15,115 nt of DNA from positions 1 to 15,115 of the forward strand of contig JAAUTI010000053.1 of assembly GCA_012031535.1 (NCBI GenBank). The letters are read 5' to 3'. Below, piece after piece: positions 243 to 14,325 of the stretch. The position numbers and the translations under genes were made by a program. Position 1 is the first letter of the stretch, and each line of letters starts with the position of its first letter. The notes beneath the pieces were generated by a model, which ran no database searches, was not told the DNA's origin, and worked only from the letters and a program-made list of their open reading frames with translations. Source of the stretch: Microcoleus sp. SM1_3_4 (GTDB taxonomy: Bacteria > Cyanobacteriota > Cyanobacteriia > Cyanobacteriales > Microcoleaceae).

Positions 243-2300
243 CTAACCCTCATTACTGTTAATTGCCAACCAAGCCCGCAACACTTCAGCCACCGTCCAA
301 GCTTGCGCCGTACAGCCCCGAGGTTCAAAGGGGTCATCGCCTTCAAAAATTTCGCCCAAACTGCCCACACCGCCCGCAAGTATATGATGTGCCATCGGTG
401 CCAGCAGTTCGGCAGCTTGTACCGGGTTTTTGTATACATCCAAGTGAGCCAAAACAAAAGAACCGATAAGCCAGCCCCAAACCGTACCCTGATGGTAGGC
501 GCTGTCGCGCTGCAATTGGTCGCCGCCATATTTGCCCCGATACAGGGGATGGTGCGGGGAGAGGCTGCGCAGGCCGAAGGAAGTGAGAAGGTCCTGCGCG
601 CAGGCATCTACTACTGACTTGCGCCGATCGGGCGTGAGTAACGGTGTATACTTGTGAGTTTCTTTCCCCGCACTTTCTTTTGCTGTAAAGGTTTTAGCGG
701 ATAAGTTCAGGGGCAGGGATACGGCAAATATCTGATTGGGGCGTAGGGAAATGTCGTGTCCCCCCGGACCGTCGAGAACGTCGAAACAGTAGCCTGCTTT
801 AGCGTTCCAGAAACGAGTGAATCCGGCTGCCGTGCGATCGGCTAACTTTTGGTATTCATAGTGAGGTTTGCCCAGTTTTTGCGCGAAATCTACCATCGAT
901 TGTATAGCATTGTACCAAAGAGCGCTGAGTTCGATCGGCTTGCCAGTGCGGGGCGTTACCACCCACTTGCCAATTTTGGCGTCCATCCAAGTCAGTTGCG
1001 AGTCTTCCTCACCAGCGTAAACTAAACCGTCGTCGGGATCGACGCGAATTTTATACCGCGTTCCTCGCAAGTGCCAGTCAACTATCTCACATAAAATCGG
1101 CCACAGTTCGCCCAACAGCCGATCGTCCCCAGTGGCATCAACATAGGCGCGAATTGCCTCAAAGTACCACAGCGTCGCGTCTGCGGTGTTGTATTCCGGC
1201 GCGCCGCCGGCATCGGGAAAGCGATTCGGCAGCATTCCCCGATCGACATATCGGGCAAAAGTCCGCAGGATCGATCGGGCAATTTCCCCGCGCCCGGTAC
1301 AGATTGTGAGACCGGGCAGGCTAATCATCGTATCGCGCCCCCAGTCGCTAAACCAGGGATATCCGGCGATGATGGTTTTGCCCTCGGGTTCCCCCGGTAG
1401 CGGGCGCTTGACGATAAATTGGTCTGCAGCTAGGACTAATTGTTCGATCCAATCGGGAGAGTCGCCGGCTTTGGGCCATTTTTGCAGCACTTCCAAATCG
1501 CCCGCACGGCGCATTTCCAAGGCTGCAGTGCCGTCTAAATCGGGATTTTTCGCGGTACTGGCTGCCAAAGTGAGAGACTCCCCCGGCGCGATGGTGAAGT
1601 GGAAAGTTGCGGCGTGCAGGTGATCCTCGCAACATTCGAGCCCGCGCCGCCTTTCTGCTGCGAGGTCAAATCCGTAGTGCCAGTTGTATAAAGGTGTAGA
1701 AACTCGGAATTTCGCCTCGGCTGCAGCATCTGCCAGCAGGTAAAGGGGCGCTGCTGCTGTGAACGCAGTCACGCAAACTCCTGCAGCAGGGGTTTCTACG
1801 GCAATCGGCCAATCGTCCGCGCTTGTCATGTGGTGGTAGTCGCGGTAATTTACTAAAGCTTTGACGGCTAGGGCGATCGGTTTTGAGGCGCGGTGCAAGC
1901 GGTATTGAATATATGTTGTGTTAGCACTTTGTTGCATCCAAATCCGTTTTTCGAGGATGGCGTCAGCGAGGGCAAACCGCCAAACAGGCGTCGTGCCTTC
2001 GAGGTGAAAGCTTTCGATGTATTTGTAGCCTTGGGGTTCGATCGTCCCGTCGGCCCAGCGGTTTGTATAAAGCGGGTAGGCGCGATCGTTATACACCGCC
2101 GTTTCGTCCAGCTTGGCCAGCATCAAAGTCCGTCCCAGCGGGGGTTTGAGTGCCGCCACCAACAAGCCGTGATACCGCCTGGTGAGAAGACCCGCGATCG
2201 TCCCGCTAGCGTAACCGCCGATGCCGTTAGTAACTAACCATTCACGAGACTCGGCAGAGTCCAGATTGCCGCAGATTTCCCGTCCAAAAGCAATAACCAT
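243..2300 (-). CDS. glycogen debranching protein, GDE_N + amylo-alpha-1,6-glucosidase (GDE_C) family, 685 aa, apparently intact
   Basis: ATG at 2300-2298. N-terminus EWLVTNGIGGYASGTIAGLLTRRYHGLLVAAL is the characteristic GDE_N domain signature. The long C-terminal region has the (alpha/alpha)6 amylo-1,6-glucosidase-type motif GYPWFSDWGRDTMISLPGL. Single uninterrupted ORF. Confidence 0.85.
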   Translation of the reverse strand: MVIAFGREICGNLDSAESREWLVTNGIGGYASGTIAGLLTRRYHGLLVAALKPPLGRTLMLAKLDETAVYNDRAYPLYTNRWADGTIEPQGYKYIESFHLEGTTPVWRFALADAILEKRIWMQQSANTTYIQYRLHRASKPIALAVKALVNYRDYHHMTSADDWPIAVETPAAGVCVTAFTAAAPLYLLADAAAEAKFRVSTPLYNWHYGFDLAAERRRGLECCEDHLHAATFHFTIAPGESLTLAASTAKNPDLDGTAALEMRRAGDLEVLQKWPKAGDSPDWIEQLVLAADQFIVKRPLPGEPEGKTIIAGYPWFSDWGRDTMISLPGLTICTGRGEIARSILRTFARYVDRGMLPNRFPDAGGAPEYNTADATLWYFEAIRAYVDATGDDRLLGELWPILCEIVDWHLRGTRYKIRVDPDDGLVYAGEEDSQLTWMDAKIGKWVVTPRTGKPIELSALWYNAIQSMVDFAQKLGKPHYEYQKLADRTAAGFTRFWNAKAGYCFDVLDGPGGHDISLRPNQIFAVSLPLNLSAKTFTAKESAGKETHKYTPLLTPDRRKSVVDACAQDLLTSFGLRSLSPHHPLYRGKYGGDQLQRDSAYHQGTVWGWLIGSFVLAHLDVYKNPVQAAELLAPMAHHILAGGVGSLGEIFEGDDPFEPRGCTAQAWTVAEVLRAWLAINSNEG

Positions 2301-2863: not shown

Positions 2864-4685
2864 GTGAAGATCGGAGCAAATTACTCGGGCAACAACCAAT
2901 GTGAATTTACCGTGTGGGCTCCCACCCTCGATCGAGTAGAACTTCACATTGTTTCGCCGCAAAAACTCCTTATCCCCATGCAAAAAACGGCAGCGGGTTA
3001 TTGGACGGCTACAGTGGCAGACATCCCTCCTGGCACTCTTTATACCTACAAACTTGACGGCACGATCGATCGCCCCGATCCGGCTTCCAAATATCAGCCC
3101 CAAGGCGTACACTCTCCATCCCAAGTAATCGACGATCGCGCTTTTACTTGGACTGAGCCAGGTTGGCAAGGTGTTCCTTTACCGGAATGATAATTTACGA
3201 ACTGCACGTCGGTACATTTACGCCAGCCGGAACTTTTGAGGCAATTATTCCGCAACTCGATCGACTCAAACAACTGGGAATTAATGCCATCGAAATTATG
3301 CCCGTGGCTCAATTCCCGGGCGATCGCAACTGGGGCTACGACGGCGTATATCCCTACGCGGTTCAAAATTCCTACGGCGGCCCGGAAGGCTTCAAAAAAC
3401 TTGTTGACTCCTGCCACCAACAAGGCATTTCCGTAATCCTCGATGTCGTTTACAACCACCTCGGACCTGAAGGCAATTATCTGCGCGACTTCGGCCCCTA
3501 CTTTACATCAAAATACGGTTCTATTTGGGGCGACCCCCTCAACTTCGACGACAAATACAGCGATGAAGTGCGCAACTACTTTATTAAAAACGCCGTATAC
3601 TGGTTTCGAGACTATCATATCGATGCTTTGAGACTCGATGCAATTCAAGCAATATTTGAAGTAGGTGCGAGGCCGTTTTTGCAAGAACTCGCCGACACCA
3701 CAGCCGAACTTTCCCAACAACTAGGACGGAAACTTTATCTAATTGCAGAAAGCGACTTGAATGATGTCCGAGTCCTGCGATCGAAAGAATTCGGCGGCTT
3801 CGGACTCGACGCCCATGGTGCGACGATTTTCACCACGCACTGCACGCGCTACTTACAGGAGAAAATGACCGCTATTACCAAGATTTCGGCAAGTGCGAAC
3901 ACCTAGAAAAAGCCTTCAAAGAAAGCTTTGTTTATTCGGGACAATACGCCCCTCACCGATTGCGCAAACACGGCAATTCTGCCGCAGCCCAACCCGCCCA
4001 CCAATTCCTCGTATTTTCCCAAACCCACGACCAAATCGGCAACCGCATTTTGGGAGACCGGCTATCAAAAATAGTTAATTTTGAAGGATTGAAACTTGCT
4101 GCCGGCACTGTTTTAATTTCTCCTTACATTCCATTTTTATTTATGGGTGAAGAGTATGGAGAAGAAACACCGTTTTTGTACTTTGTTTCCCACTCGGATG
4201 AGAACTTAATTGAAGCCATCCGCAAAGACAAACAGCAAGAATTTAAAATTTTTGAAGATAGGGGAGAATTTCAAGACCCCCAGAGTCCTGAAACTTTCCA
4301 AAACTGCAAATTAGATTGGGAAAAACACACCCAAGGGAAACACAAAATCCTCTGGGAATGGCACCAGCAGCTAATTCAATTGCGGCGGACAATTCCCGCC
4401 CTGAAAAAACTCGACAAAAACAGTTTGGAAGTATTTAGTAGCGAAGCCGAAAAAATCTTATTTCTCCGTCGCTGGGCTGATGACAGCCAGATATTTTGCA
4501 TTCTAAACTTCAACAAGCAAGAAGTTGCTATTACGGCTAAAATTCCTCAAGGTAACTGGGAAAAGATTTTAGATTCGATCGACACTAAATGGCTGGGTAC
4601 AGGTTCAACATTACCTCAAAAGATAACTTCCGAGCAAAAATTGACAGTCCAACCGCAAAGTTTTGCGCTTTATCAATTACAGTAA
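2864..4685 (+). CDS. treZ: malto-oligosyltrehalose trehalohydrolase TreZ (GH13 with N-terminal CBM48/E-set domain). Reading frame broken by two single-base frameshifts (near 3185-3190 and 3811-3816). ORF fragments are 2864-3190, 3163-3906 and 3960-4685.
   Basis: GTG start at 2864. Fragment 1 [20 protein letters not shown]...WQGVPLPE is the E-set/CBM48 N-domain. Fragment 2 contains [11 protein letters not shown]...[10 protein letters not shown]...GYDGV and [19 protein letters not shown] (GH13 catalytic regions). Re-translating across 3811-3830 in the third frame gives [54 protein letters not shown], which joins directly onto fragment 3. The three pieces sum to about 607 aa, the normal TreZ length. 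Both shifts are -1 relative to an intact gene. Confidence 0.88.
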
Positions 4686-4899: not shown

Positions 4900-7699
4900 A
4901 TGAGAATCCCCACTACAACCTATCGCATTCAATTTCATGCAGGCTTTAACTTTGAAGCAGCCCAACAAATCCTCAGCTATTTAGAAGAATTAGGAATCAC
5001 CGACCTTTACGCTTCACCAATATTTAAAGCCAGAAAAGGCAGCACTCACGGCTACGATGTAGTTGACTCGAATCAGCTAAACCCCGAATTAGGAACCTCC
5101 GAAGACTTTGAAAAACTCATCGGCGAAATCCAGAAACGCAAAATGGGATGGTTGCAAGATATCGTCCCGAATCACATGGCTTACGATACTCAAAATTTGT
5201 TGCTTTTAGACGTACTGGAACACGGGCCGGATTCTGACTATTTCGACTACTTTGATATTGAATGGAATCACAGTTACGAAAATATCAGAGGGCGAGTGTT
5301 AGCGCCGCTGCTAGGCAACTTTTACGGTGAATGTTTGGAAAATGGCGAAATTCAACTCAAGTACGGCGAAAACGGGTTGAGCGTCAATTACTACAGCTTA
5401 GAATTGCCAGTTAGAATCGAATCCTATGCCAAGTTTATCAGTCAAAATTTGGGACACTTAGCCAGGGAATTGGGGAGAAAACATCCCGATTTTATCAAGT
5501 TACTGGGGATACTTTACATGATTAAAAATGTCCCTGCTGAAACTCAAGGTAAGGAAAGGTACGACCAAATAGCGTTCGCCAAAGGCTTGCTGTGGGAACT
5601 CTACAATCAAAATCCCATAGTGCAGAAATTTTTTGAGGATAATATCGAATTTTTCAACGGTGAAAAGGGCAATCCCGAAAGCTTTAATCCGCTGGATAAT
5701 TTACTATCCGATCAGTTTTACCGCCTTTCTTTCTGGAAAGTGGGTGCTGAAGAAATTAACTACCGGAGATTTTTTACTGTCAACGAACTGATTTCAGTAA
5801 AAGTTGAAGAGCTCAAAGTTTTTCTCAAGAACCAAGATTTGATTTTCGATCTGGTTGAAGAGGGGAATTTCACGGGATTGAGAATTGACCATATTGACGG
5901 ACTTTACGATCCTACGGAATATTTAGAAAGACTGAGAAAGAAAATCGGAGATACTTACATTGCTGTTGAAAAAATTCTCGAACACAAAGAAGATTTGCCC
6001 TCTTATTGGCCGATTCAAGGAACCAGCGGCTACGATTTTTTAAACTATGTAAACGGTGTTTTTTGTCGGTGCGATCGCGAGCAACAATTTAGCGATATCT
6101 ATCACAGATTTACTCGTTTAAATACGCCCTACGAACAGTTATTTCTCGCTAAAAAGACCTTGATTATCGAAAAGAATTTAGCGGGAGATGTAGACAATCT
6201 TGCTCAACTTTTAAAAACAATATCCGGCCATTCCCGACAAGGAAATGATTTTACCCGCCGCGGCTTAGAACAAGCACTTTCTGCTGTTTTGGCAATTTTT
6301 CCTGTTTACCGAACTTACATTAATCAAGATGGTTTGCGAGAGTCCGATCGCACTTATGTAAAAGAGGCAATTGCCCAAGCAAAAGAACAAGTACCGCTGC
6401 TGCTGAAAGAAATCGATTTCATCGAAAAACTGCTGTTATTAGAAGAAGAAGAAACCGTAACTTCAGAACAAAAAGCCTACCGCCGCCACTTCGTCATGAA
6501 GCTGCAGCAACTAACAGGCCCGCTGATGGCAAAAGGCGTTGAAGACACACTTCTATACGTCTACTACCGTCTTTTATCCCTCAACGAAGTCGGAGGAAAT
6601 CCCAGTCAATTCGGTGTTTCCCTAGCAGATTTTCACGAGTTCAACCAACAGCAGCAACAGGTTTGGCCGCACAAAATGAATGCTACAGCTACCCACGACA
6701 CCAAACGCGGGGAAGACGTGCGAGCTCGAATTAACATCCTCTCAGAAATTCCCGAAGAATGGGAACAGCAAGTCAAATCTTGGCGAGAAGTAAACTCTGC
6801 CAAAAAGTTAACTTAGTGAATCGCATAGTTCCCGATACTAACGATGAATACTTCTTTTACCAAACTTTAGTCGGCACTTTTCCATTTGAGGGAATTGAAA
6901 ATACAGATTATATCGATCGCATCAAAAATTATGTCATCAAAGCCGTCCGCGAAGCGAAAGTTCACACTGCTTGGCTGCGGCCGGATAACAAATATGAAGA
7001 AGGTTTTATTACCTTTGTCGATCGGGTTTTGGAACCTGGGGAATCAAATCAATTTCTCAAAAAATTTCAGCCTTTCTGCAAAAAGTAGCCCTCTACGGAA
7101 TTGGCAATTCTTTATCTCAAACCCTGCTCAAAATTGCATCACCGGGCATTCCCGACATTTATCAAGGAACGGAATTTTGGGATTTGAGTCATGTCGATCC
7201 TGACAACCGCCGCCCGGTAGATTTTGAACGCCGGATCGAGGTTTTGCAGGAAATAAAACAGAGATCGGAGGCGGATATTTTGCAACTGATTGAGGAGTTG
7301 ATAGCAACGCGAGAAGATGCTAGAATTAAACTATTCCTAACCGCCAGACTTCTCGCATCCCGCAAACAGTACCGCGAAGTTTTTGCCCGAGGCAATTACC
7401 AGCCACTAACAGTAACTGGCCCTTTTAAAGATAGTATTATTGCTTTTGCCAGAAGCTGGGGAAACACGACAATTATGGCTGTTGCCCCTCGATTTGTGAC
7501 CAGCGTTGTTGCGCCGGAAGCAATGGCGATCGGCAAAGAAATCTGGGAAGATACGGAGTTAGAATTGCCGCCAGGAATGCCTGTTGTTTGGCAGGATGCG
7601 GTGACAAATCAGACGCTAGAAAGTGACGGTACGCTGGAAATTTCTGAAGTCTTGAAATACTTTCCTGCTGCGATGGCGATCGGGCAAAATAGCAATTAA
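4900..7699 (+). CDS. treY: malto-oligosyltrehalose synthase TreY (GH13). Frame broken by two single-base frameshifts (near the A5 run at 6801-6805 and near 7072-7085). ORF fragments are 4900-6816, 6759-7088 and 7184-7699.
   Basis: ATG at 4900. N-terminus TYRIQFHAGFNFEAAQQILSYLEELGITDLYASPIFKARKGSTHGYDVVDSNQLNPELG...DIVPNHMAY is the TreY signature. Fragment 2 (NDEYFFYQTLVGTFPFEG) and the third frame read from 7077 (FLQKVALYGIGNSLSQTLLKIASPGIPDIYQGTEFWDLSHVDPDNRRPVDFERR) continue the family alignment without a gap. Total length about 933 aa, as expected for TreY. Confidence 0.88.
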
Positions 7700-7724
7700 A
7701 GAGTCGATCGTATCCCAGGCTAAA

Positions 7725-7797
7725 GACACAACAATGTTGTGTCCCTACAAGTAATATTTATTTTATCATTTGTAGGGACACGGCACTGCCGTTTCCT
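7725..7797. terminator. cluster of nested/adjacent palindromes between convergent treY and MVP genes; candidate bidirectional intrinsic terminator
   Basis: GACACAAC-AAT-GTTGTGTC (8-bp stem, 7727-7745). A 12-bp perfect inverted repeat GTGTCCCTACAA ... TTGTAGGGACAC (7739-7750 / 7770-7781) with a 19-nt AT-rich loop. ACGGCA-C-TGCCGT (7779-7791) followed by TTTCC. An AT/T-rich run ATATTTATTTTATC follows the first hairpin on the plus strand. Confidence 0.35.
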
Positions 7798-7807
7798 TCA
7801 TCTATTT

Positions 7808-10459
7808 CTAGCTTTCATTCGCCCCAGAACCGATCAAACCTTGAGCCGCGTTAAATAAATTGATCGGATTTTTCCCATCAGTAATTAACACGCTTTGAAT
7901 GCCGAGAGATTGCAAAAGTTTAGCCTGCATTTCCGGTCCGGCTTGTGCCATTGCTTTCAAAGTTTCAGGCCCGATAGCCTCTACTTTTTCCCGGAATTCC
8001 GCACTGGTAATTTCCGCCATTCGCTGGGCTTTCTCAATTTCTAGAGTGCTTAGGGCTTGTTGGTGGGCTAATTCTGCTTCCTGTCTGGCCCTCATTTGCG
8101 CCAATTCTCCCTCGGCGCGAATTCTGGCTGCTTCCGCTTCCTGCTGTGCCAAATTCACTGCTAATTCGCCTTGAATTTCGCGCTGCTTCTGCTTTTCGCC
8201 CTCGCTTCGGCTGTCGCGTGCCCGGTAGATTCGATCGCAATATTTTCTGCCTGCAATTCTAACAGATTTTTGCGTTCGGATTCCGCCGCACCCTTATCTA
8301 CAATTGCCTGTCTTTCCAATCTAGCTTTTGCCTCTTGTTCGATGCGGGCTGCATCGTGCTTCGCAGCAGCTTCTTGAGCGTCAGTGGTAATTTGAATTGC
8401 AATTTGTACCGATTTTTGCAAACTTTTTAACGTTGCTTCATCGATCGGTTCGACTGATTGAATGTCAATATTAGTAATGACCAAACTGTTAGTTTTAAAC
8501 CGAAATTCATCTCCGATCCGACCGTCTTCGCTGACGCCAAATACAGCATGGCGGATAATTCGTGCCGAATTGCGGTGGAATTCATCAAACTTTTCTCCCG
8601 CAACTGCACCGCGAACCGAGAGGCAATTGCCTTGCAAGCATCTCCTACAAAATCGGGAACTTGAAACAGTTTTGCCGCCGCTTGTTCGTCGTGCCGCACG
8701 AGATCGAAATACCAGTTATAAGATAGCTGAATTTGCAAGCGAGCGTGATCCGATGTTTCTACAGTAAAAACATCAGTCATAAAATCTGGACCCAGCAACA
8801 AAGCTAAAGATTTAATCGCATTCGGCTTTTTCGGTTTGCCGCCAGACAAACTGAGAACTGTAAACGCTTCATCCGGCCCCAACATCACCAAATCCGGCCC
8901 GAATACAGTGCGGGCAGTGCGATTTTTGTAATCGTGAATTTGCACTGCGGAATTTTGGGGAACGTGGAACACAACTGCCCTGGTTTTATCCCGCAAAACC
9001 TGCATTTCCGAGTGGGCAACACCGCGCAATTGCTGCATTCCGCGATCGGAAATCGGATCGCTTTTTTGTGCTAGCAATTCTTCAACAACTGGCGGCAATT
9101 CTTTTTCCCAAAGTTCCTCGTAAGGACTCAGCATATATGCTTGCGGCCCGCCCACTAATCGGAGTTCTCCTGTTTGGATATCGCGCACGTAAATGCCTTC
9201 ATTCTTATCCAGAGGAATCGCTTTTCGCTTTTCCACAACTTCTACTTCGACGCGGGGAATGTAATCGCGCGGTCCGGAAATCATCCATAAATCCCCCGGT
9301 TGGTGGGAAACTAGATTGTCGCTTTCTCCCTCATTAAAAGCTTCTTTCGCTCTCAATAACAGTGCTTCTTGTTCGCTGAGAACGTAAACTGTTGAATCCC
9401 GCCTTCCAAGATTCTCCCGGATGCAGGAAAAGAAGCTCGACCTGGCGGACTTCTTCAGTCCAATTGAGGCTTACCATCCGCATCAATTGGATCGAGAACA
9501 ATGCACCATTGACGATCGCCCAAAGTAGCAATTTCTACTTCTCCTACTACTTCTTCGTACACGTCGGGAATGTGAATTTCTGCATCTTCAAACGTCACCA
9601 ACCATTCATCGCCCGCTTTTCTCTGCCGCCCGAAAACATCAGTAAAAGTGCGTTTAGCCTTCAAATGCAGGGCTTTTCGTTCCGTCAAAACACAAGCATT
9701 AATAATGTTGACAACAGCTTCATCAACTCCCGGCAAATAAGCACCTTCATCCCTCACCAACCATTCTTCACCAGCGCGGCGGCGGTTTCCTTGCCTGTCA
9801 GTACAAGATTGTCGGGCGATTAAGCGCAAAGCTTGATTCGGTTTAATTACTACAGATTTCACCGTTTCTACAACTTCAACTTCCACGCGCGGCAAATAAG
9901 TTCCCGGCCCTTCAAACAGCCATTCATCCCCAGCCAAACGATTAATTGTTTGACCTTCAGATTCACTTTCTCCTGCCGTTGCTGTAGGGGCAATCCCCCC
10001 GTGGCTGCCCCGCATGGGAGGAGTATCTGCAAAATCTCGCAGTGCTCGGAGGCGCAATGCTTGATTGGTTTCGACAACCTGCAAGCGAGTCACATCCTGC
10101 TCTAATTCTTCTCCCGGATACAGGGCAAAAGGTTCTTGAGCAAAGCGAACTTCTGCATCGCCGTAGCGCAATTTAATTTGTCCGTGAGGGTCAGCAATCG
10201 GTTGATTTTCTGCATCACGGAGGACGGGATTAGCAACAATACAATAGTAGCGCGGCGGCACGATTAGCATCGGTTCCGGTCTTAAAATCAGCCGTTCGTG
10301 GTCGCGCAAAGTGATTGTTTGCGGGCCGACTTCTAGCCTGGTAATGCCCGTATTGTTATCGATGACATGAATGTATTGCTGCGGCTTCAGGCGAATAATG
10401 CCGCTAGAAATCCCCAAAGTTTCACCTTTGTTATCGCGTTTTAGTTCGCTGGTATTCAT
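7808..10459 (-). CDS. Major Vault Protein (MVP) homologue, about 884 codons, full eukaryote-like architecture. Frame broken by four single-base frameshifts (near 9455, 9405, 8613 and 8195). ORF fragments are 9455-10459, 8427-9356, 8161-8637 and 7808-8158.
   Basis: ATG at 10459-10457. The translation matches MVP along its whole length, as I recall the eukaryotic protein. N-terminal repeat region: [20 protein letters not shown]...[12 protein letters not shown]...[20 protein letters not shown]...[22 protein letters not shown]...GEEWLV...[22 protein letters not shown]. Middle: [44 protein letters not shown]...[15 protein letters not shown]...[26 protein letters not shown]...[11 protein letters not shown]...[15 protein letters not shown]...[19 protein letters not shown]. 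Shoulder/cap-helix: [27 protein letters not shown]...[11 protein letters not shown]...[25 protein letters not shown]-terminus: [49 protein letters not shown]. Re-translation across the junctions restores continuity (e.g. [21 protein letters not shown] joins fragment 1 to 2; [15 protein letters not shown] joins 2 to 3). Confidence 0.9.
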
Positions 10460-10552
10460 GATGTTAATAGTTGGTTGTAGGCTGTTTTTCTGGTAGTTGA
10501 GATGCGACTTGGATGGCGATTGTAATGGAGGTTTTTAAACAGTTGACTTGTA

Positions 10553-10628
10553 ATTTGTAGGGTGCGCACTGCGCACCTTACCTGCAAATAATTTGTAGGG
10601 TGCGCACTGCGCACCTTACCTGCAAATA
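10553..10628. repeat. perfect tandem duplication of a 38-bp unit ATTTGTAGGGTGCGCACTGCGCACCTTACCTGCAAATA; each unit contains the palindrome GGTGCGCA-C-TGCGCACC; lies in the MVP upstream region
   Basis: Seen directly: 10553-10590 and 10591-10628 are identical. Inner palindrome arms are GGTGCGCA/TGCGCACC. Outer near-inverted arms are ATTTGTAGG/CCTGCAAAT (8 of 9). The 10-mer ATTTGTAGGG followed by a palindrome centred on GCACTGC also occurs at 7768-7791, downstream of the MVP stop. Confidence 0.8.
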
Positions 10629-10804
10629 GCTGTTCAAATTACTGCGTGGATGAATCCTGTATCAGTTATGTTGTGTCGATCGTACTCTCTCTCTTGTGGG
10701 AGTTACAAACTTGTAACAAAACTACAAAATGTTACATCCAAAAAGTGAAGCTGCTGCCTATTGAGAAAGGTGAAAGATCTCAGATATAACTCAGATCTTG
10801 CAGC

Positions 10805-10885
10805 AATGTCAAAAACCGGGTTTCTGGAAAAAACTCTGCATAAAAACAGATATTTTTCATCAGAAACCCGGTTTCTCGCTTGGTT
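10805..10885. repeat. copy 1 of a dispersed ~75-bp element carrying two AAACC-N-GGTTT palindromes with 51-bp centre-to-centre spacing
   Basis: AAACC-G-GGTTT at 10813-10823 and AGAAACC-C-GGTTTCT at 10862-10876; centres at 10818 and 10869. Arms CCGGGTTTCTG and CAGAAACCCGG can also pair as an 11-bp stem. Second copy at 13228-13305 with identical 51-bp spacing and similar internal sequence ((A)GTATTTTC..C(A/C)(C/G)AAACCCGGTTTC). Located between the protease stop and the MVP upstream repeats. Confidence 0.7.
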
Positions 10886-10919
10886 ATTGAGAATGCTGCA
10901 AGATGTCAAATATAACAGA

Positions 10920-11750
10920 CTATTCTTCTTCGGGTTGGCCTTCAAAAGTTTCCTCAAATCCGGCTAAAAAGTCATCCAAAGCTTCAGCAGAAATTGCCAA
11001 ATTGATGCTGTCGGCTTCTTCCCAACCCCACGTATTCACCCCGACAACTTGACCGGCTGCATTAATTAACGGGCCGCCCGAATTTCCCGGATTGATCGCC
11101 GCATCAGTTTGCAATATTTTCACTTCCGCAATATCGCTGTCTTCGTCCTCTCCTTCTTCATACTCGTCGGGTTCGCGAATTGCACTAATAATGCCCTGGG
11201 TTACAGTTGCAGCAAACTCCCCTAGAGGATTTCCTACCGCAATTACTGGATCTCCCACTTTGACATCAAAAGACAGTTCTAGGGGTGCATATTCTTGAGG
11301 AGATTCTACTTGTTCTCCGGTTTCCGGGTTGATGATAAAATCCGTAACTAATAGCAAAGCTAAATCTTCTTCCGCATTGCCGGTAAAAACTACTTCGGCC
11401 AGCCGCATTTGTCCGCCGTAAGTTTCCACTAAAACCAGTTCTACTTCATCTTCTTCGTAAAAATAATCTTCCTCGGCAATATCTTCGATTACGTGATAGT
11501 TAGTTACAATGATGTCAGGGGAGACAAAGAAGCCGCTGCCGGAGGAAATTTCTTCTTCTAAATCCCAATCCATGACATACACTGAAACTACGGAGGGCAA
11601 GACTCGATCGACTGCACCAGCAAAGTTGCCCGAATGAGTTTTGAGTTCCTTCACTTGCTGCTGCAAAGCTTCACGATCGGCCTCCATTTTGCGGTAAAGT
11701 TGCTGAACTTTTTCCACTTCTAACTTTAGTGTACTTTCCAGATCGCTCAT
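10920..11750 (-). CDS. trypsin-like serine protease (S1/HtrA-type catalytic domain, no PDZ domain, no signal peptide) with N-terminal coiled-coil and highly acidic insertions and C-terminal tail
   Basis: ATG at 11750-11748 with a GAAAGG Shine-Dalgarno-like motif upstream. Catalytic-triad motifs in canonical order: TNYHVIED (His), DLALLLV (Asp), INPGNSGGPLIN (Ser, GNSGGP). N-terminal heptad-like segment LKLEVEKVQQLYRKMEADREALQQQVKELK. Acidic runs EEDYFYEEDEVEL and EPDEYEEGEDEDSD, the latter where HtrA proteases have a short loop. Acidic C-terminal tail FEETFEGQPEEE. Confidence 0.8.
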   Translation of the reverse strand: MSDLESTLKLEVEKVQQLYRKMEADREALQQQVKELKTHSGNFAGAVDRVLPSVVSVYVMDWDLEEEISSGSGFFVSPDIIVTNYHVIEDIAEEDYFYEEDEVELVLVETYGGQMRLAEVVFTGNAEEDLALLLVTDFIINPETGEQVESPQEYAPLELSFDVKVGDPVIAVGNPLGEFAATVTQGIISAIREPDEYEEGEDEDSDIAEVKILQTDAAINPGNSGGPLINAAGQVVGVNTWGWEEADSINLAISAEALDDFLAGFEETFEGQPEEE

Positions 11751-12006: not shown

Positions 12007-12980
12007 CTAAGAACCGCGCTGAACTTCGACAAAAATCTCCTCTAAAATTTCCTGCGCTCCTTGTTTGCGCAAGCGGTGAGCGAGGTCAATTCCCAACATT
12101 TCGGCTGTTTCGGCAGCACCTGTTACAGTGTCTTTGACTAACCGCTTGCCGTCGAGACTGGCTACCATGCCGGTTAAAGTTAATTGACCGTTTTCTATGT
12201 TAGTATTAACGCCGATCGGCACTTGACAGCCGCCTTCCAATTCCCGCAAAAATGCGCGTTCGGCATAACACCGTTGGGCGGTTTCCGAATGTTCTAAAGC
12301 TTTAATTACTTGTAGAATTTCTGGATCTCCGGCGCGGCATTCAATCCCCAAAGCACCCTGTCCGACAGCGTGCAAAGAGATTTCGGGAGCGATAATTTGA
12401 TGGATGCGATCGCTCATTCCCAATCTTTCCAATCCCGCCACTGCTAAAATAATTGCATCGTAACCGCCCTCATCCAATTTGGCGAGTCTAGTGTTAAGAT
12501 TGCCGCGAATATCTTTAAAATTCAAAATGAGGGAAATGGTGGCGCAATTGGGCGAGCCGGCGCAGGGAAGAAGTGCCGATAACAGCACCTTCTGGCAGGG
12601 TATCGAGTTGCTTGTCTTTGTGTTTTTTCGTGAACTACGAGGGCGTCAGCAGGATTTTCCCGTTCGGTGACGCATCCTAAAATTAAACCTTCGGGTAAAT
12701 TGGTAGGCAAATCCTTGAGGGAATGAACGGCAAAGTCCGTTTCATTGTTCAGCATTCCCGTTTCTAATTCTTTTGTAAAAAGTCCTTTATCGCCGATTTT
12801 GGCTAGGGCGACATCAAGAATTTTATCGCCTTGCGTGGCCATCGTGTGGACTTCAAAAGTACGTTCGGGAAAGTGTTTCTGAAGCTGTGCTTGCACCCAA
12901 TGAGTTTGAACGAGGGCGAGTTGGCTTTTGCGAGAACCGATGCGGACGGTTCTGGAGGGGGCAGATGCGATCGGAGACAT
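12007..12980 (-). CDS. hemC: porphobilinogen deaminase (hydroxymethylbilane synthase) HemC. Frame broken by two homopolymer indels (A6 on the coding strand at plus-strand 12623-12628 and T4 at plus-strand 12517-12520). ORF fragments are 12522-12980 and 12007-12588.
   Basis: ATG at 12980-12978. N-terminus [21 protein letters not shown]...[20 protein letters not shown]...[12 protein letters not shown] is the HemC signature. After VVHEK the frame is lost. Reading one base over gives [37 protein letters not shown] second shift then gives [33 protein letters not shown]...[10 protein letters not shown]...GGCQVPIG (fragment 2). Total about 324 aa. Removing one A from the A6 run and one T from the T4 run restores a single ORF. 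Confidence 0.9.
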
Positions 12981-13393: not shown

Positions 13394-13431
13394 TACAAGT
13401 AAATTTGTCAAATTACTCAAATTCTCAAATT

Positions 13432-13887
13432 ATGAAAAGTGCTCTGGATGTAGCTCGTTACTTTTTATGTCGGGTCGATCGAGAATCAGGCGATACTATT
13501 TCTCTGCTCAAATTGCAAAAGCTCGTGTATTACGCTCAAGCTTGGAGTTTAGTTTTTAGAAGCCAGCCGCTATTTTTTCAAGATGTTGAAGCTTGGGTTT
13601 CCGGCCCTGTTGTCCGCGATGTTTGGAATGAATACAAAGCTTACAAATATAGCGATATTCCCGTTCCCGATAACTTTGATGGAGAATTTGAGGAAGATGA
13701 ACTCGAAGTTCTCGAAGAAGTTTGGAATGCTTATGGAGAATTAAGTGCTAAACATTTGGCAGAACTAACGCACTCAGAGATGCCTTGGTTAAACGCTCGC
13801 AAGGGATTAGAACCTGCGGAAACATCAACTAACATCATCTCTCACGATGATATGAAAGACTGCTATTCATCTTTGGTAGAGGCATAA
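13432..13887 (+). CDS. Panacea-domain (DUF4065, SocA/PanA-like) protein; putative type II antitoxin
   Basis: The ORF track begins at a TTG (13405). The first ATG is at 13432 (MKSALDVARYF...). The core DTISLLKLQKLVYYAQAWSLVFRSQPLFFQDVEAWVSGPVVRDVWNEYKAY matches the DUF4065/Panacea signature (hydrophobic LKLQKL(L/V)YYAQ..., then AW..GPVV..V(Y/W)..YK). Acidic C-terminal half. Confidence 0.65.
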   Translation: MKSALDVARYFLCRVDRESGDTISLLKLQKLVYYAQAWSLVFRSQPLFFQDVEAWVSGPVVRDVWNEYKAYKYSDIPVPDNFDGEFEEDELEVLEEVWNAYGELSAKHLAELTHSEMPWLNARKGLEPAETSTNIISHDDMKDCYSSLVEA

Positions 13888-14325
13888 GTGGGAAAAAAGA
13901 ATCAAATACCAAAACCACCTCAAAAACAACAAAGAAAAATTCCAGAAGCAGCAACCCTGTTAAGCCAACCAAGCAGTACAGATAACGAGCATCCTAGCTT
14001 CCGATTTACCTATGCAGATAAAAATCGTTGGCTGCTGTCCGATTGGACAGCATCAGAAATCAATGACCTAATTGCAGGACTGAAGAAAATTGAAAAATAT
14101 ACTTGGGCTCAAATCAAAGGTCATGGCTCAAAAAAACGAGGTGAATCAGTAGGAACGGGTTATAAGTTAATTGACACCCATCCGACTTTGCCTGACAATA
14201 TTCCTGAAGATGAAAGATTATCAGAGATGCGAATTGATGAGAAAAAACGGATATTTGGGTTTCGCGTTCAATCTGTTTACTACATCGTTTGGTTCGATCG
14301 CGACCATTCTGTTTGTCCAGAATAA
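13888..14325 (+). CDS. hypothetical protein, possible RelE/HigB-superfamily-like toxin partner of the upstream Panacea protein; GTG start immediately after the upstream TAA stop, in the same reading frame
   Basis: Uninterrupted 145-codon ORF with no internal ATG before codon ~110. The C-terminal region GYKLIDTHPTLPDN...RIFGFRVQSVYYIVWFDRDHS resembles, as I recall it, the HigB/RelE C-terminus (YKLHPLKGD...WRITFQF.NGDAYILNYEDYH). The N-terminal ~40 residues are low-complexity (K/Q/P-rich). Assignment by eye only. Confidence 0.4.
   Translation: MGKKNQIPKPPQKQQRKIPEAATLLSQPSSTDNEHPSFRFTYADKNRWLLSDWTASEINDLIAGLKKIEKYTWAQIKGHGSKKRGESVGTGYKLIDTHPTLPDNIPEDERLSEMRIDEKKRIFGFRVQSVYYIVWFDRDHSVCPE

Follow-up and report, generated by a model that had tools for sequence, protein, structure and literature searches.

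The major vault protein (MVP) forms the shell of the eukaryotic vault, which comprises about 78 subunits arranged as two 39-mer halves. The hallmark of MVP is an N-terminal array of about nine antiparallel β-sheet repeat domains (R1–R9), and the coiled coil of its cap-helix drives vault assembly. Work on the rat protein in insect cells showed that eukaryotic MVP alone is sufficient for assembly and that N-terminal additions are tolerated; the rat N-terminus forms the half-to-half contact at the waist of the particle. The complete vault particle associates with vault RNA, vPARP (PARP4), and TEP1. What vaults do has stood as an unresolved question for 40 years. MVPs are also found in cyanobacteria, as described in 2013 (PMC3762200), 2019 (10.1101/872010), and 2023 (10.1101/2023.11.10.566534) and annotated in public databases; accordingly, the gene analyzed here does not represent a new kind of object. 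It occupies positions 7808–10459 on the minus strand of contig JAAUTI010000053.1 from Microcoleus sp. SM1_3_4 (GenBank assembly GCA_012031535.1), the 15,115 nucleotides of which are referred to as the window. A preliminary description of this DNA, made from the sequence alone, had called the function of bacterial MVP unstudied. This holds for experiments, as no experimental characterization of a bacterial MVP was found in the literature searched, but not for the family itself, which the three reports above describe.

As deposited, the gene is split by frame breaks, the correction of which at nine homopolymer sites yields a coding sequence of 2658 nt for 885 residues with no internal stop. The corrected protein (98 kDa, acidic, isoelectric point 5.1) matches the Pfam families Vault (four stretches), Vault_2 (two stretches), Vault_4, and Vault_3 with E-values from 1e-17 to 1e-65, and residues 559–676 cover the entire MVP_shoulder model (PF11978, model positions 1–118 of 118, E = 9e-52). 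Its top sequence matches in the PDB are the rat, human, and rabbit MVPs. The alignment with rat MVP spans rat residues 5–854 of 861, scores about 1014 bits, and shows 58% identity over 833 columns; it is continuous over residues 5 to about 520 in the repeat region and gapless at the C-terminal side through residue 854. In addition, the PDB cap fragment 9z5n_B matches residues 782–883. No membrane-like segment was found in the protein with Kyte–Doolittle windows of 19 residues, the maximum being 1.26.

The fold was assessed with an AlphaFold2 model of P0001, a homologue 91% identical to the window protein. The model (mean pLDDT, the predicted local confidence score, of 80) displays β-only repeats across residues 20–560, an α/β shoulder, one uninterrupted helix at 676–830, corresponding to a cap-helix of about 155 residues, and short cap-ring helices thereafter. 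A Foldseek search of the PDB with this model placed the rabbit, human, and rat vault chains first (E about 1e-87, 54%–55% identity, 820–857 columns). Ranks 18–50 are cages of the SPFH family, namely flotillin, HflK/C, prohibitin, and stomatin, matching the shoulder–helix part. The repeat array, the SPFH-like shoulder, and the long cap-helix with its cap-ring, which together define an MVP, are therefore all present. The end-to-end homology and the domain series claimed in the preliminary description were borne out by the rat alignment, the Pfam models (Vault, Vault_2, Vault_3, Vault_4, and MVP_shoulder, all far above their cut-offs), the P0001 model, and Foldseek, and the peptide stretches it quoted are all found in the translations. 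Taken together, we consider the gene to be an authentic chromosomal bacterial MVP orthologue of the "eukaryote-like" clade that is probably intact in the organism, a Microcoleus-like member of the Oscillatoriales, and we give this reading as a whole a probability of about 0.78.

The gene covers 2652 nt in the window, from an ATG at 10459 to a TAG stop codon at 7810–7808, and is distributed over four open reading frames (ORFs) on the minus strand. The first, of 334 residues (9455–10459), encodes the N-terminal extension, repeats R1–R2 (10405–10022), a variable insertion in the R2–R3 loop (10021–9938, residues 147–174), and the repeats from R3 on; this piece is by itself enough to retrieve mouse, rat, and human MVP from the PDB, at about 1e-110. 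The second contributes its part at 8618–9356 (the ORF as listed being 9356–8427), with the middle repeats, including the Vault_4 match at 9221–9042 and the Vault_3 match at 8975–8793, and the first half of the shoulder from 8792. In the third (8161–8637), the shoulder is completed at 8440 and the cap-helix begins at 8439; the fourth (7808–8158) carries the cap-helix on to about 7976 and also holds the cap-ring region (7975–7811) and the stop codon. According to the ORF list, the start coordinates of the four pieces fall in frames 1, 2, 0, and 1 (modulo 3), and the three-frame translation shows the MVP-homologous reading jumping between frames along 7808–10459. Even the raw pieces match Vault (E = 5e-50), Vault_2, Vault_3, Vault_4, and MVP_shoulder, the last being divided over two frames at 8617, with model positions 1–61 on one piece and 60–118 on the next. 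The preliminary description had presented an intact gene of about 884 residues and, although it alluded to a frame-corrected protein, did not point out this breakage.

The frame breaks could be traced with a public contig found in our genome scan, L001 (JAAUPF010000142.1, "MAG: Richelia sp. CSU_2_1", a metagenome-assembled genome (MAG) at about 7× coverage). It is 99.5% identical to the window, with about 0.3% evenly spread substitutions and 12 insertions or deletions, and the two are distinct records. Relative to L001, the window MVP carries nine homopolymer-length events with a net change of –6 nt, which split the gene into its four ORFs. The first breaks are six contractions, 7 nt in total, within 67 nt at 9393–9459 (GGG to GG, AAA to AA, GGG to GG, TTTTTT to TTTT, TTT to TT, and AAA to AA). 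A single-G contraction at 8617 (GG for GGG) breaks the shoulder domain, and two single-A expansions at 8196 (AAAA for AAA) and 8178 (AAA for AA) displace the frame in two steps, 18 nt apart, back to the original one. L001 is in frame at all nine sites and matches the intact homologue P0001 continuously over residues 1–826, and two independent genomes, L002 and L031, side with L001 across the cluster at 9458–9393. At 7989 the roles are reversed: the window is correct and L001 lacks one A (its position 12477).

Two further features of L001 were observed. From its position 12523 on (window 7942), it shares nothing more with the window or any other MVP locus; it lacks the conserved MVP 3′ end that these retain and runs into an AAA_14 ATPase ORF. 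The whole aberrant stretch, with the single-A loss, is L001 12477–14087. A misjoin or a rearrangement, truncating MVP in the public MAG, is the probable cause. Moreover, although labeled Richelia sp., its hemC, protease, and MVP are closest to those of Microcoleus and Oscillatoriaceae (L002, L010, and L031; hemC at 92%–97% amino-acid identity), and the taxonomic label looks wrong.

Breakage of the same kind is found in other genes of the window. The hemC gene is split by two homopolymer expansions, one A too many at 12628 and one T too many at 12520, while L001 has a single open frame of 328 residues; treZ is spread over three frames and treY over four. Between the window and L001, MVP differs outside the indel cluster by six substitutions, every one of them synonymous. 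Compared with five intact orthologues of 879–892 residues, the corrected MVP shows ratios of nonsynonymous to synonymous substitution rates (dN/dS) of 0.088 (L002), 0.105 (L010), 0.109 (L031), and 0.070 (both L003 and L015). MVP is thus under strong purifying selection. Given that hemC is broken likewise, that L001, L002, and L031 are in frame, and that dN/dS is about 0.1, the MVP frame breaks are most likely technical, introduced by sequencing or assembly, and the living organism probably carries an unbroken gene. In this light, the window looks like an error-prone rendering of a region that has a 99.5%-identical public counterpart.

The surroundings of the gene are bacterial. Immediately upstream of MVP lies a trypsin/HtrA-like serine protease gene (10920–11750, minus strand), followed by hemC in two ORFs (12007–12980, minus strand); on the downstream side lie treY, encoding malto-oligosyltrehalose synthase (4900–7699, plus strand, at least four ORFs in different frames), and the frame-split treZ (2864–4685). 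The preliminary description had identified treY, treZ, and hemC correctly, but its placement of MVP directly next to hemC overlooked the protease gene in between. The order hemC–protease–MVP recurs in L001, L010 (Oscillatoriaceae Prado104), and L031 (Microcoleus sp. Aus8_D2). The MVPs of L010 and L031 share 86% amino-acid identity with the window protein at a synonymous divergence (dS) of about 0.73–0.78, and an order conserved at this divergence indicates that the arrangement is old. The downstream side of MVP differs in each relative, with treY in the window, glgA in L031, and a PTPS-like gene in L010. Overall GC content and GC content at third codon positions (GC3) are 0.479 and 0.431 for MVP, 0.485 and 0.451 for hemC, 0.454 and 0.401 for the protease gene, and 0.428 and 0.441 for treY. 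A scan of the whole window for tRNA and tmRNA genes found none, and hence no tRNA integration site, and no integrase or transposase is present near MVP among the window genes.

No conserved partner gene of MVP was found across 62 loci. The sole recurrent cluster, in 13 loci, consists of histidine kinases and response regulators, which were rejected as specific partners for being generic. MVP is thus a stand-alone gene. Nothing in the window points to a link with defence or phages; PADLOC and PHROGs gave no matches for the MVP pieces, and a search of IMG/VR viral contigs with the family alignment found no relative.

Palindromic repeats lie on both sides of the gene, at 7722–7798 and inside a perfect 2 × 38-bp tandem duplication at 10551–10626, both of which the preliminary description had recorded correctly. 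The former is a hairpin right after the stop codon on the minus strand (–38 kcal/mol, z = –5.5), probably a terminator or an mRNA-stabilizing stem. Its palindrome is of the GTAGGGACAC...GTGTCCCTAC type (also given as GTAGGGACAC...CCCTAC), and the same type occurs upstream of the L010 MVP. The 38-bp duplication lies in the upstream or leader region of MVP and contains the palindrome GGTGCGCACTGCGCACC in each unit; the element is duplicated in the window and L001 (with one mismatch) only, whereas L010 and L002 each have one partial copy and L031 has none. The flanking palindromes are ordinary cyanobacterial intergenic hairpins rather than island boundaries. Dense short tandem and palindromic repeats also fill the intergenic regions upstream of MVP in L010 (8958–10000) and L031 (9562–10000), for instance a CCTCCGTGG run, TGTCAAC and CTCAAAA repeats, and GGGGGAT-type palindromes. 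The MVP upstream intergenic region is a hotspot of small repeat turnover.

The same region contains a conserved block at 10702–10726 (minus strand), in which the motif TGTAGTTTTGTTACA (TGTA-N7-TACA) overlaps the near-palindrome GTTACAAGTTTGTAAC. Of 57 loci, 7 have this 15-bp palindromic motif, TGTAG-N5-TTACA, at 100–270 nt ahead of the MVP start, and L010 has it at a greater distance; besides the window, it is carried by L001, L002, L003, L010, L015, L017, L028, and L058. Its rate is 0.274 per kb upstream of MVP versus 0.020 per kb over the whole loci, and spacings of N6, N8, and N9 gave no matches upstream of MVP in these loci. A TAnnAT-like box follows about 27 nt downstream of the motif. 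From its conservation and position, the motif may be an operator or promoter element for bacterial MVP. Reading it as an NtcA site was rejected, since the spacing is N7 at every locus and N8 has no match. An inverted repeat at 10813–10874 with 21-nt arms of 86% complementarity, located downstream of the protease gene and ending in a minus-strand T-run, looks like a terminator, such that MVP would have its own promoter. A scan of 7600–10950 for consensus promoters and terminators gave fewer matches than shuffled sequence and was uninformative.

Several observations weigh against an intact, vault-forming MVP in this strain. Frame breaks are denser in MVP (nine in 2.65 kb) than in the upstream 4.65 kb (two), and the protease gene and the glycogen debranching gene at the far end of the window carry none; given this density, some real decay in this strain is possible. 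The P0001 monomer reaches a global TM-score of only 0.42–0.48 against the vault chains, as expected for a long hinged monomer, and this score does not in itself establish the assembled geometry. The literature searched contained no report of particle assembly by a bacterial MVP, and no bacterial MVP structure was among the PDB matches of either the sequence search or Foldseek. Rfam gave no match at E ≤ 1 over the whole window, including to vault RNA, and no vPARP- or TEP1-like neighbor was found in the window and the locus flanks; none of the three partners of a complete vault particle was seen in this neighborhood. The break density, with six of the nine events in 67 nt, would also fit a recently inactivated pseudogene decaying by slippage at short homopolymers, all the more as L001 has its own single-A loss and no MVP 3′ end, and as the patchy distribution of MVP shows it to be dispensable in many cyanobacteria. 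However, the same type of change breaks the essential hemC, of which L001 has an intact copy, the frames of treY and treZ are disrupted as well, and the MVP gene has acquired no nonsense substitution, only synonymous ones at the clean sites; its nine events add up to a net –6 nt. Furthermore, the window and L001 are broken at different sites, each being right where the other errs, which fits independent errors and not shared decay. We thus regard a genuine pseudogene as unlikely. A recent island inserted between core genes, a view taken up from the preliminary description, which had found the palindromes and the tandem duplication compatible with an acquired segment, appears more improbable still. 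In its favor are the palindromes on both sides, a TTTGTAGGG motif common to both flanks, the varying downstream neighborhood among close relatives, and the tight bacterial clan across three phyla, which is probably explained by horizontal transfer at a deep level. Nevertheless, the hemC–protease–MVP order is kept in three relatives, the promoter-proximal block is conserved together with MVP, the 38-bp element varies among relatives and so marks no boundary, and the 3′ palindrome, a hairpin resembling a terminator, follows the stop codon immediately. Nor did codon usage indicate foreignness, as MVP resembles hemC, the protease gene, and treY in GC and GC3. Composition, mobility genes and tRNAs, and bounding repeats therefore all speak against a genomic island, and MVP is a long-resident gene. 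For a bacterium–eukaryote pair, the 58% shared with rat MVP is an unusually high identity and might suggest eukaryotic contamination of the assembly. This was refuted, its probability being practically nil, by the lack of introns, by the bacterial hemC, HtrA-like protease, and treY/treZ genes that flank MVP at a distance of a few hundred bases, by the occurrence of orthologues in complete cyanobacterial chromosomes of 6–10 Mb, and by the separate bacterial clade with 100/100 bootstrap support; the bacterial origin of the contig, considered likely in the preliminary description, is thus confirmed.

As to the product, the organism probably makes an intact, soluble, acidic MVP of 885 residues, and its assembly may be envisaged from eukaryotic MVP. 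Subunits would pack side by side, with the β-repeat domains forming the barrel wall, the SPFH-like shoulder forming the turn, and the cap-helix of about 155 residues forming a coiled-coil bundle that closes the cap, to give a hollow vault-like shell. By this analogy, closed vault-like particles are the somewhat favored outcome for the window MVP. An intact and expressed MVP might instead form a surface- or membrane-docked half-cage or dome of the SPFH type or another oligomer, or serve as a non-assembled scaffold, without closed free vaults. The resemblance of shoulder and helix to the SPFH cages, the lack of vault partners nearby, and the N-terminus, which makes the waist contact in rat but bears an extension of about 14–18 low-confidence residues here, are consistent with a half-cage. 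However, every repeat domain, including R1–R2, is kept at high identity and a membrane anchor is absent, while eukaryotic MVP needs no partner for assembly and tolerates N-terminal tags; such a half-cage or other oligomer is accordingly the less likely outcome, though not a far-fetched one. In contrast, a TolA-like, membrane-anchored "colicin uptake protein" is very improbable. NCBI and UniRef give many orthologues that name, and PMC3762200 and 10.1101/872010 discuss the resemblance of the Ala/Glu/Gln-rich cap-helix to domain II of TolA. Against it, MVP domains cover the whole length and align end to end with rat MVP, no hydrophobic segment is present, no NCBIfam model matches the protein, no TolA family is among its Pfam or NCBIfam matches, and the structural matches are vault chains followed by SPFH cages. 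The TolA-like reading is therefore effectively refuted, and the NCBI product name is misleading for the MVP family.

The preliminary description had considered MVP rare in bacteria, which our searches contradict. A word-indexed protein search returned 2,577 proteins at E ≤ 1e-10, the best 120 of which are 73%–91% identical, nearly full-length, and, where named, mostly cyanobacterial; they are annotated as "colicin uptake protein" at NCBI and "major vault protein" at JGI. The genome scan found MVP at no fewer than 62 species-level loci, which is a lower bound. These include Oscillatoriales (Microcoleus, Moorena, Symploca, Laspinema, Allocoleopsis, Planktothricoides, and Oxynema), Nostocales (Nostoc sp. 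T09, Calothrix NIES-2100, and Aulosira), Prochloron, and, outside the cyanobacteria, Thiomargarita and Parabeggiatoa (Gammaproteobacteria) as well as Anaerolineae (Chloroflexota). The MVPs of Thiomargarita and Parabeggiatoa (L049, L051, and L052) and of Anaerolineae/Anaerolineales (L050, L054, and L055) share 64%–69% identity with the N-terminal third of the window protein. An exhaustive HMMER census of 50%-identity clusters yielded 3,755, 1,924, and 471 clusters at E ≤ 1e-3, 1e-10, and 1e-30, respectively, and its named top representatives are eukaryotes, namely Anaeramoeba, a sponge, a ciliate, trypanosomes, and Intoshia.

In a neighbor-joining tree of 48 sequences over 826 columns, many of them metagenome proteins, the bacterial "eukaryote-like" MVPs all group in one clan (bootstrap support 100/100), the internal branches of which are short relative to eukaryotic diversity. 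A single tight clan with short branches fits one origin followed by spread among filamentous mat bacteria. It suggests that MVP has been shared among filamentous mat-forming bacteria, including giant sulfur bacteria and Chloroflexota, and gene sharing of this kind is documented for other genes (PMC6390638). As the tree has no outgroup, it does not settle the direction of transfer between bacteria and eukaryotes, on which the literature is divided: Daly et al. (2013) favored transfer from eukaryotes to cyanobacteria (PMC3762200), Sokolskyi (2019) favored the opposite direction (10.1101/872010), and the eukaryotic cluster of a 2023 preprint has the cyanobacterial MVPs at its base (10.1101/2023.11.10.566534). 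That the filamentous-bacterial clade might be no late import from eukaryotes but the source or sister of the eukaryotic vault, forming true cages from MVP alone, with neither vault RNA nor vPARP or TEP1, under the control of the TGTA-N7-TACA motif, is a speculative proposal and doubtful as a whole.

Other genes of the window were also noted. Beyond treY and treZ, a GDE-type glycogen debranching enzyme gene (243–2300, minus strand) has a GC content of 0.554 and a GC3 of 0.586, against a GC of 0.43–0.48 in other genes. It is the only long gene without a frame break, its best NCBIfam model is of the "archaeal type", and it is the compositionally most foreign-looking gene in the window. On the other side, beyond hemC, an ORF with a SocA/Panacea antitoxin domain (13405–13887, plus strand) abuts an ORF of 145 residues (13888–14325, plus strand), which matches the MAG6450 family and, weakly, NsnC of PADLOC. 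Both are low in GC (about 0.40) and probably constitute a toxin–antitoxin or defence pair; SocA homologues also lie near MVP in L017, L031, and L047. The protease encoded at 10920–11750 matches HtrA/DegP models and the C-terminal protease part of "RT-Protease_XI" in PADLOC (E = 2e-16), the latter probably reflecting no more than the common trypsin fold. Synteny of its gene with MVP is confined to close relatives.

What this analysis adds to the known cyanobacterial MVPs is that the gene, despite its broken look, is probably intact and is long-resident, that the family forms one tight clade over at least three phyla of filamentous bacteria, and, as a small new lead, that a conserved TGTA-N7-TACA palindrome upstream of MVP may be a regulatory site. 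With 58% identity to its mammalian counterpart and no vPARP, TEP1, or vault RNA detected nearby, a bacterial MVP offers a simple system for the role and the origin of the shell. Related strains can be grown in culture, and genetic manipulation may be feasible in some of them. If a bacterial clade indeed stood at the origin of the vault, cyanobacteria would provide a tractable system for what vaults do.

Comparison with the known systems places the window protein closest to other cyanobacterial MVPs. Those of Moorena/Lyngbya (F4Y3B4), Oscillatoria, Allocoleopsis PCC 7113, and Oxynema belong to the same family at 73%–91% full-length identity, with 79% amino-acid identity at the Moorena locus L021, and the window copy is set apart from them only by its low-coverage MAG lineage and its frame-broken state as sequenced. 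Relative to eukaryotic MVP (PDB 4V60, 7PKZ, 9BW5, and 9Z4W), the domain order is equal and the length nearly so; the host, however, is a bacterium, and no vault RNA, vPARP, or TEP1 was detected in the window. Compared with rat MVP, the window protein has about 14–18 extra residues at the N-terminus, of low confidence in the P0001 model, an insertion of 28 residues in the R2–R3 loop (10021–9938), and a shorter shoulder loop. The R2–R3 insertion varies in length among the compared bacterial MVPs, from about 5 to 30 residues beyond rat; it is of low model confidence, Thr/Glu/Gly-rich in several of them, and represents a lineage-specific surface or lumen loop. At the C-terminus, the window protein stops well short of human MVP (893 residues), lacking the human tail, but only about five residues earlier than rat MVP (861 residues), such that the shorter C-terminus relative to vertebrate MVP that had been described holds for the human protein and hardly for the rat one. 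More distant are the MVP-like proteins of Myxococcales and Bacteroidota, from Saprospira, Microscilla, Corallococcus, and Plesiocystis (PMC3762200, 10.1101/872010). They combine repeats, a shoulder/band-7 domain, and a coiled coil in gliding filamentous or social bacteria, but, compared here by their published description, have a recognizable band-7 domain and only about 16% identity to cyanobacterial MVPs. Finally, the SPFH-family cages (HflK/C, flotillin, prohibitin, stomatin, and erlin) resemble the window protein in the shoulder and the long helix and form closed domes of laterally packed helices; in contrast to it, they share only 10%–19% identity, are membrane-anchored, and lack the vault repeats, whereas the window protein has the repeats and no membrane segment.

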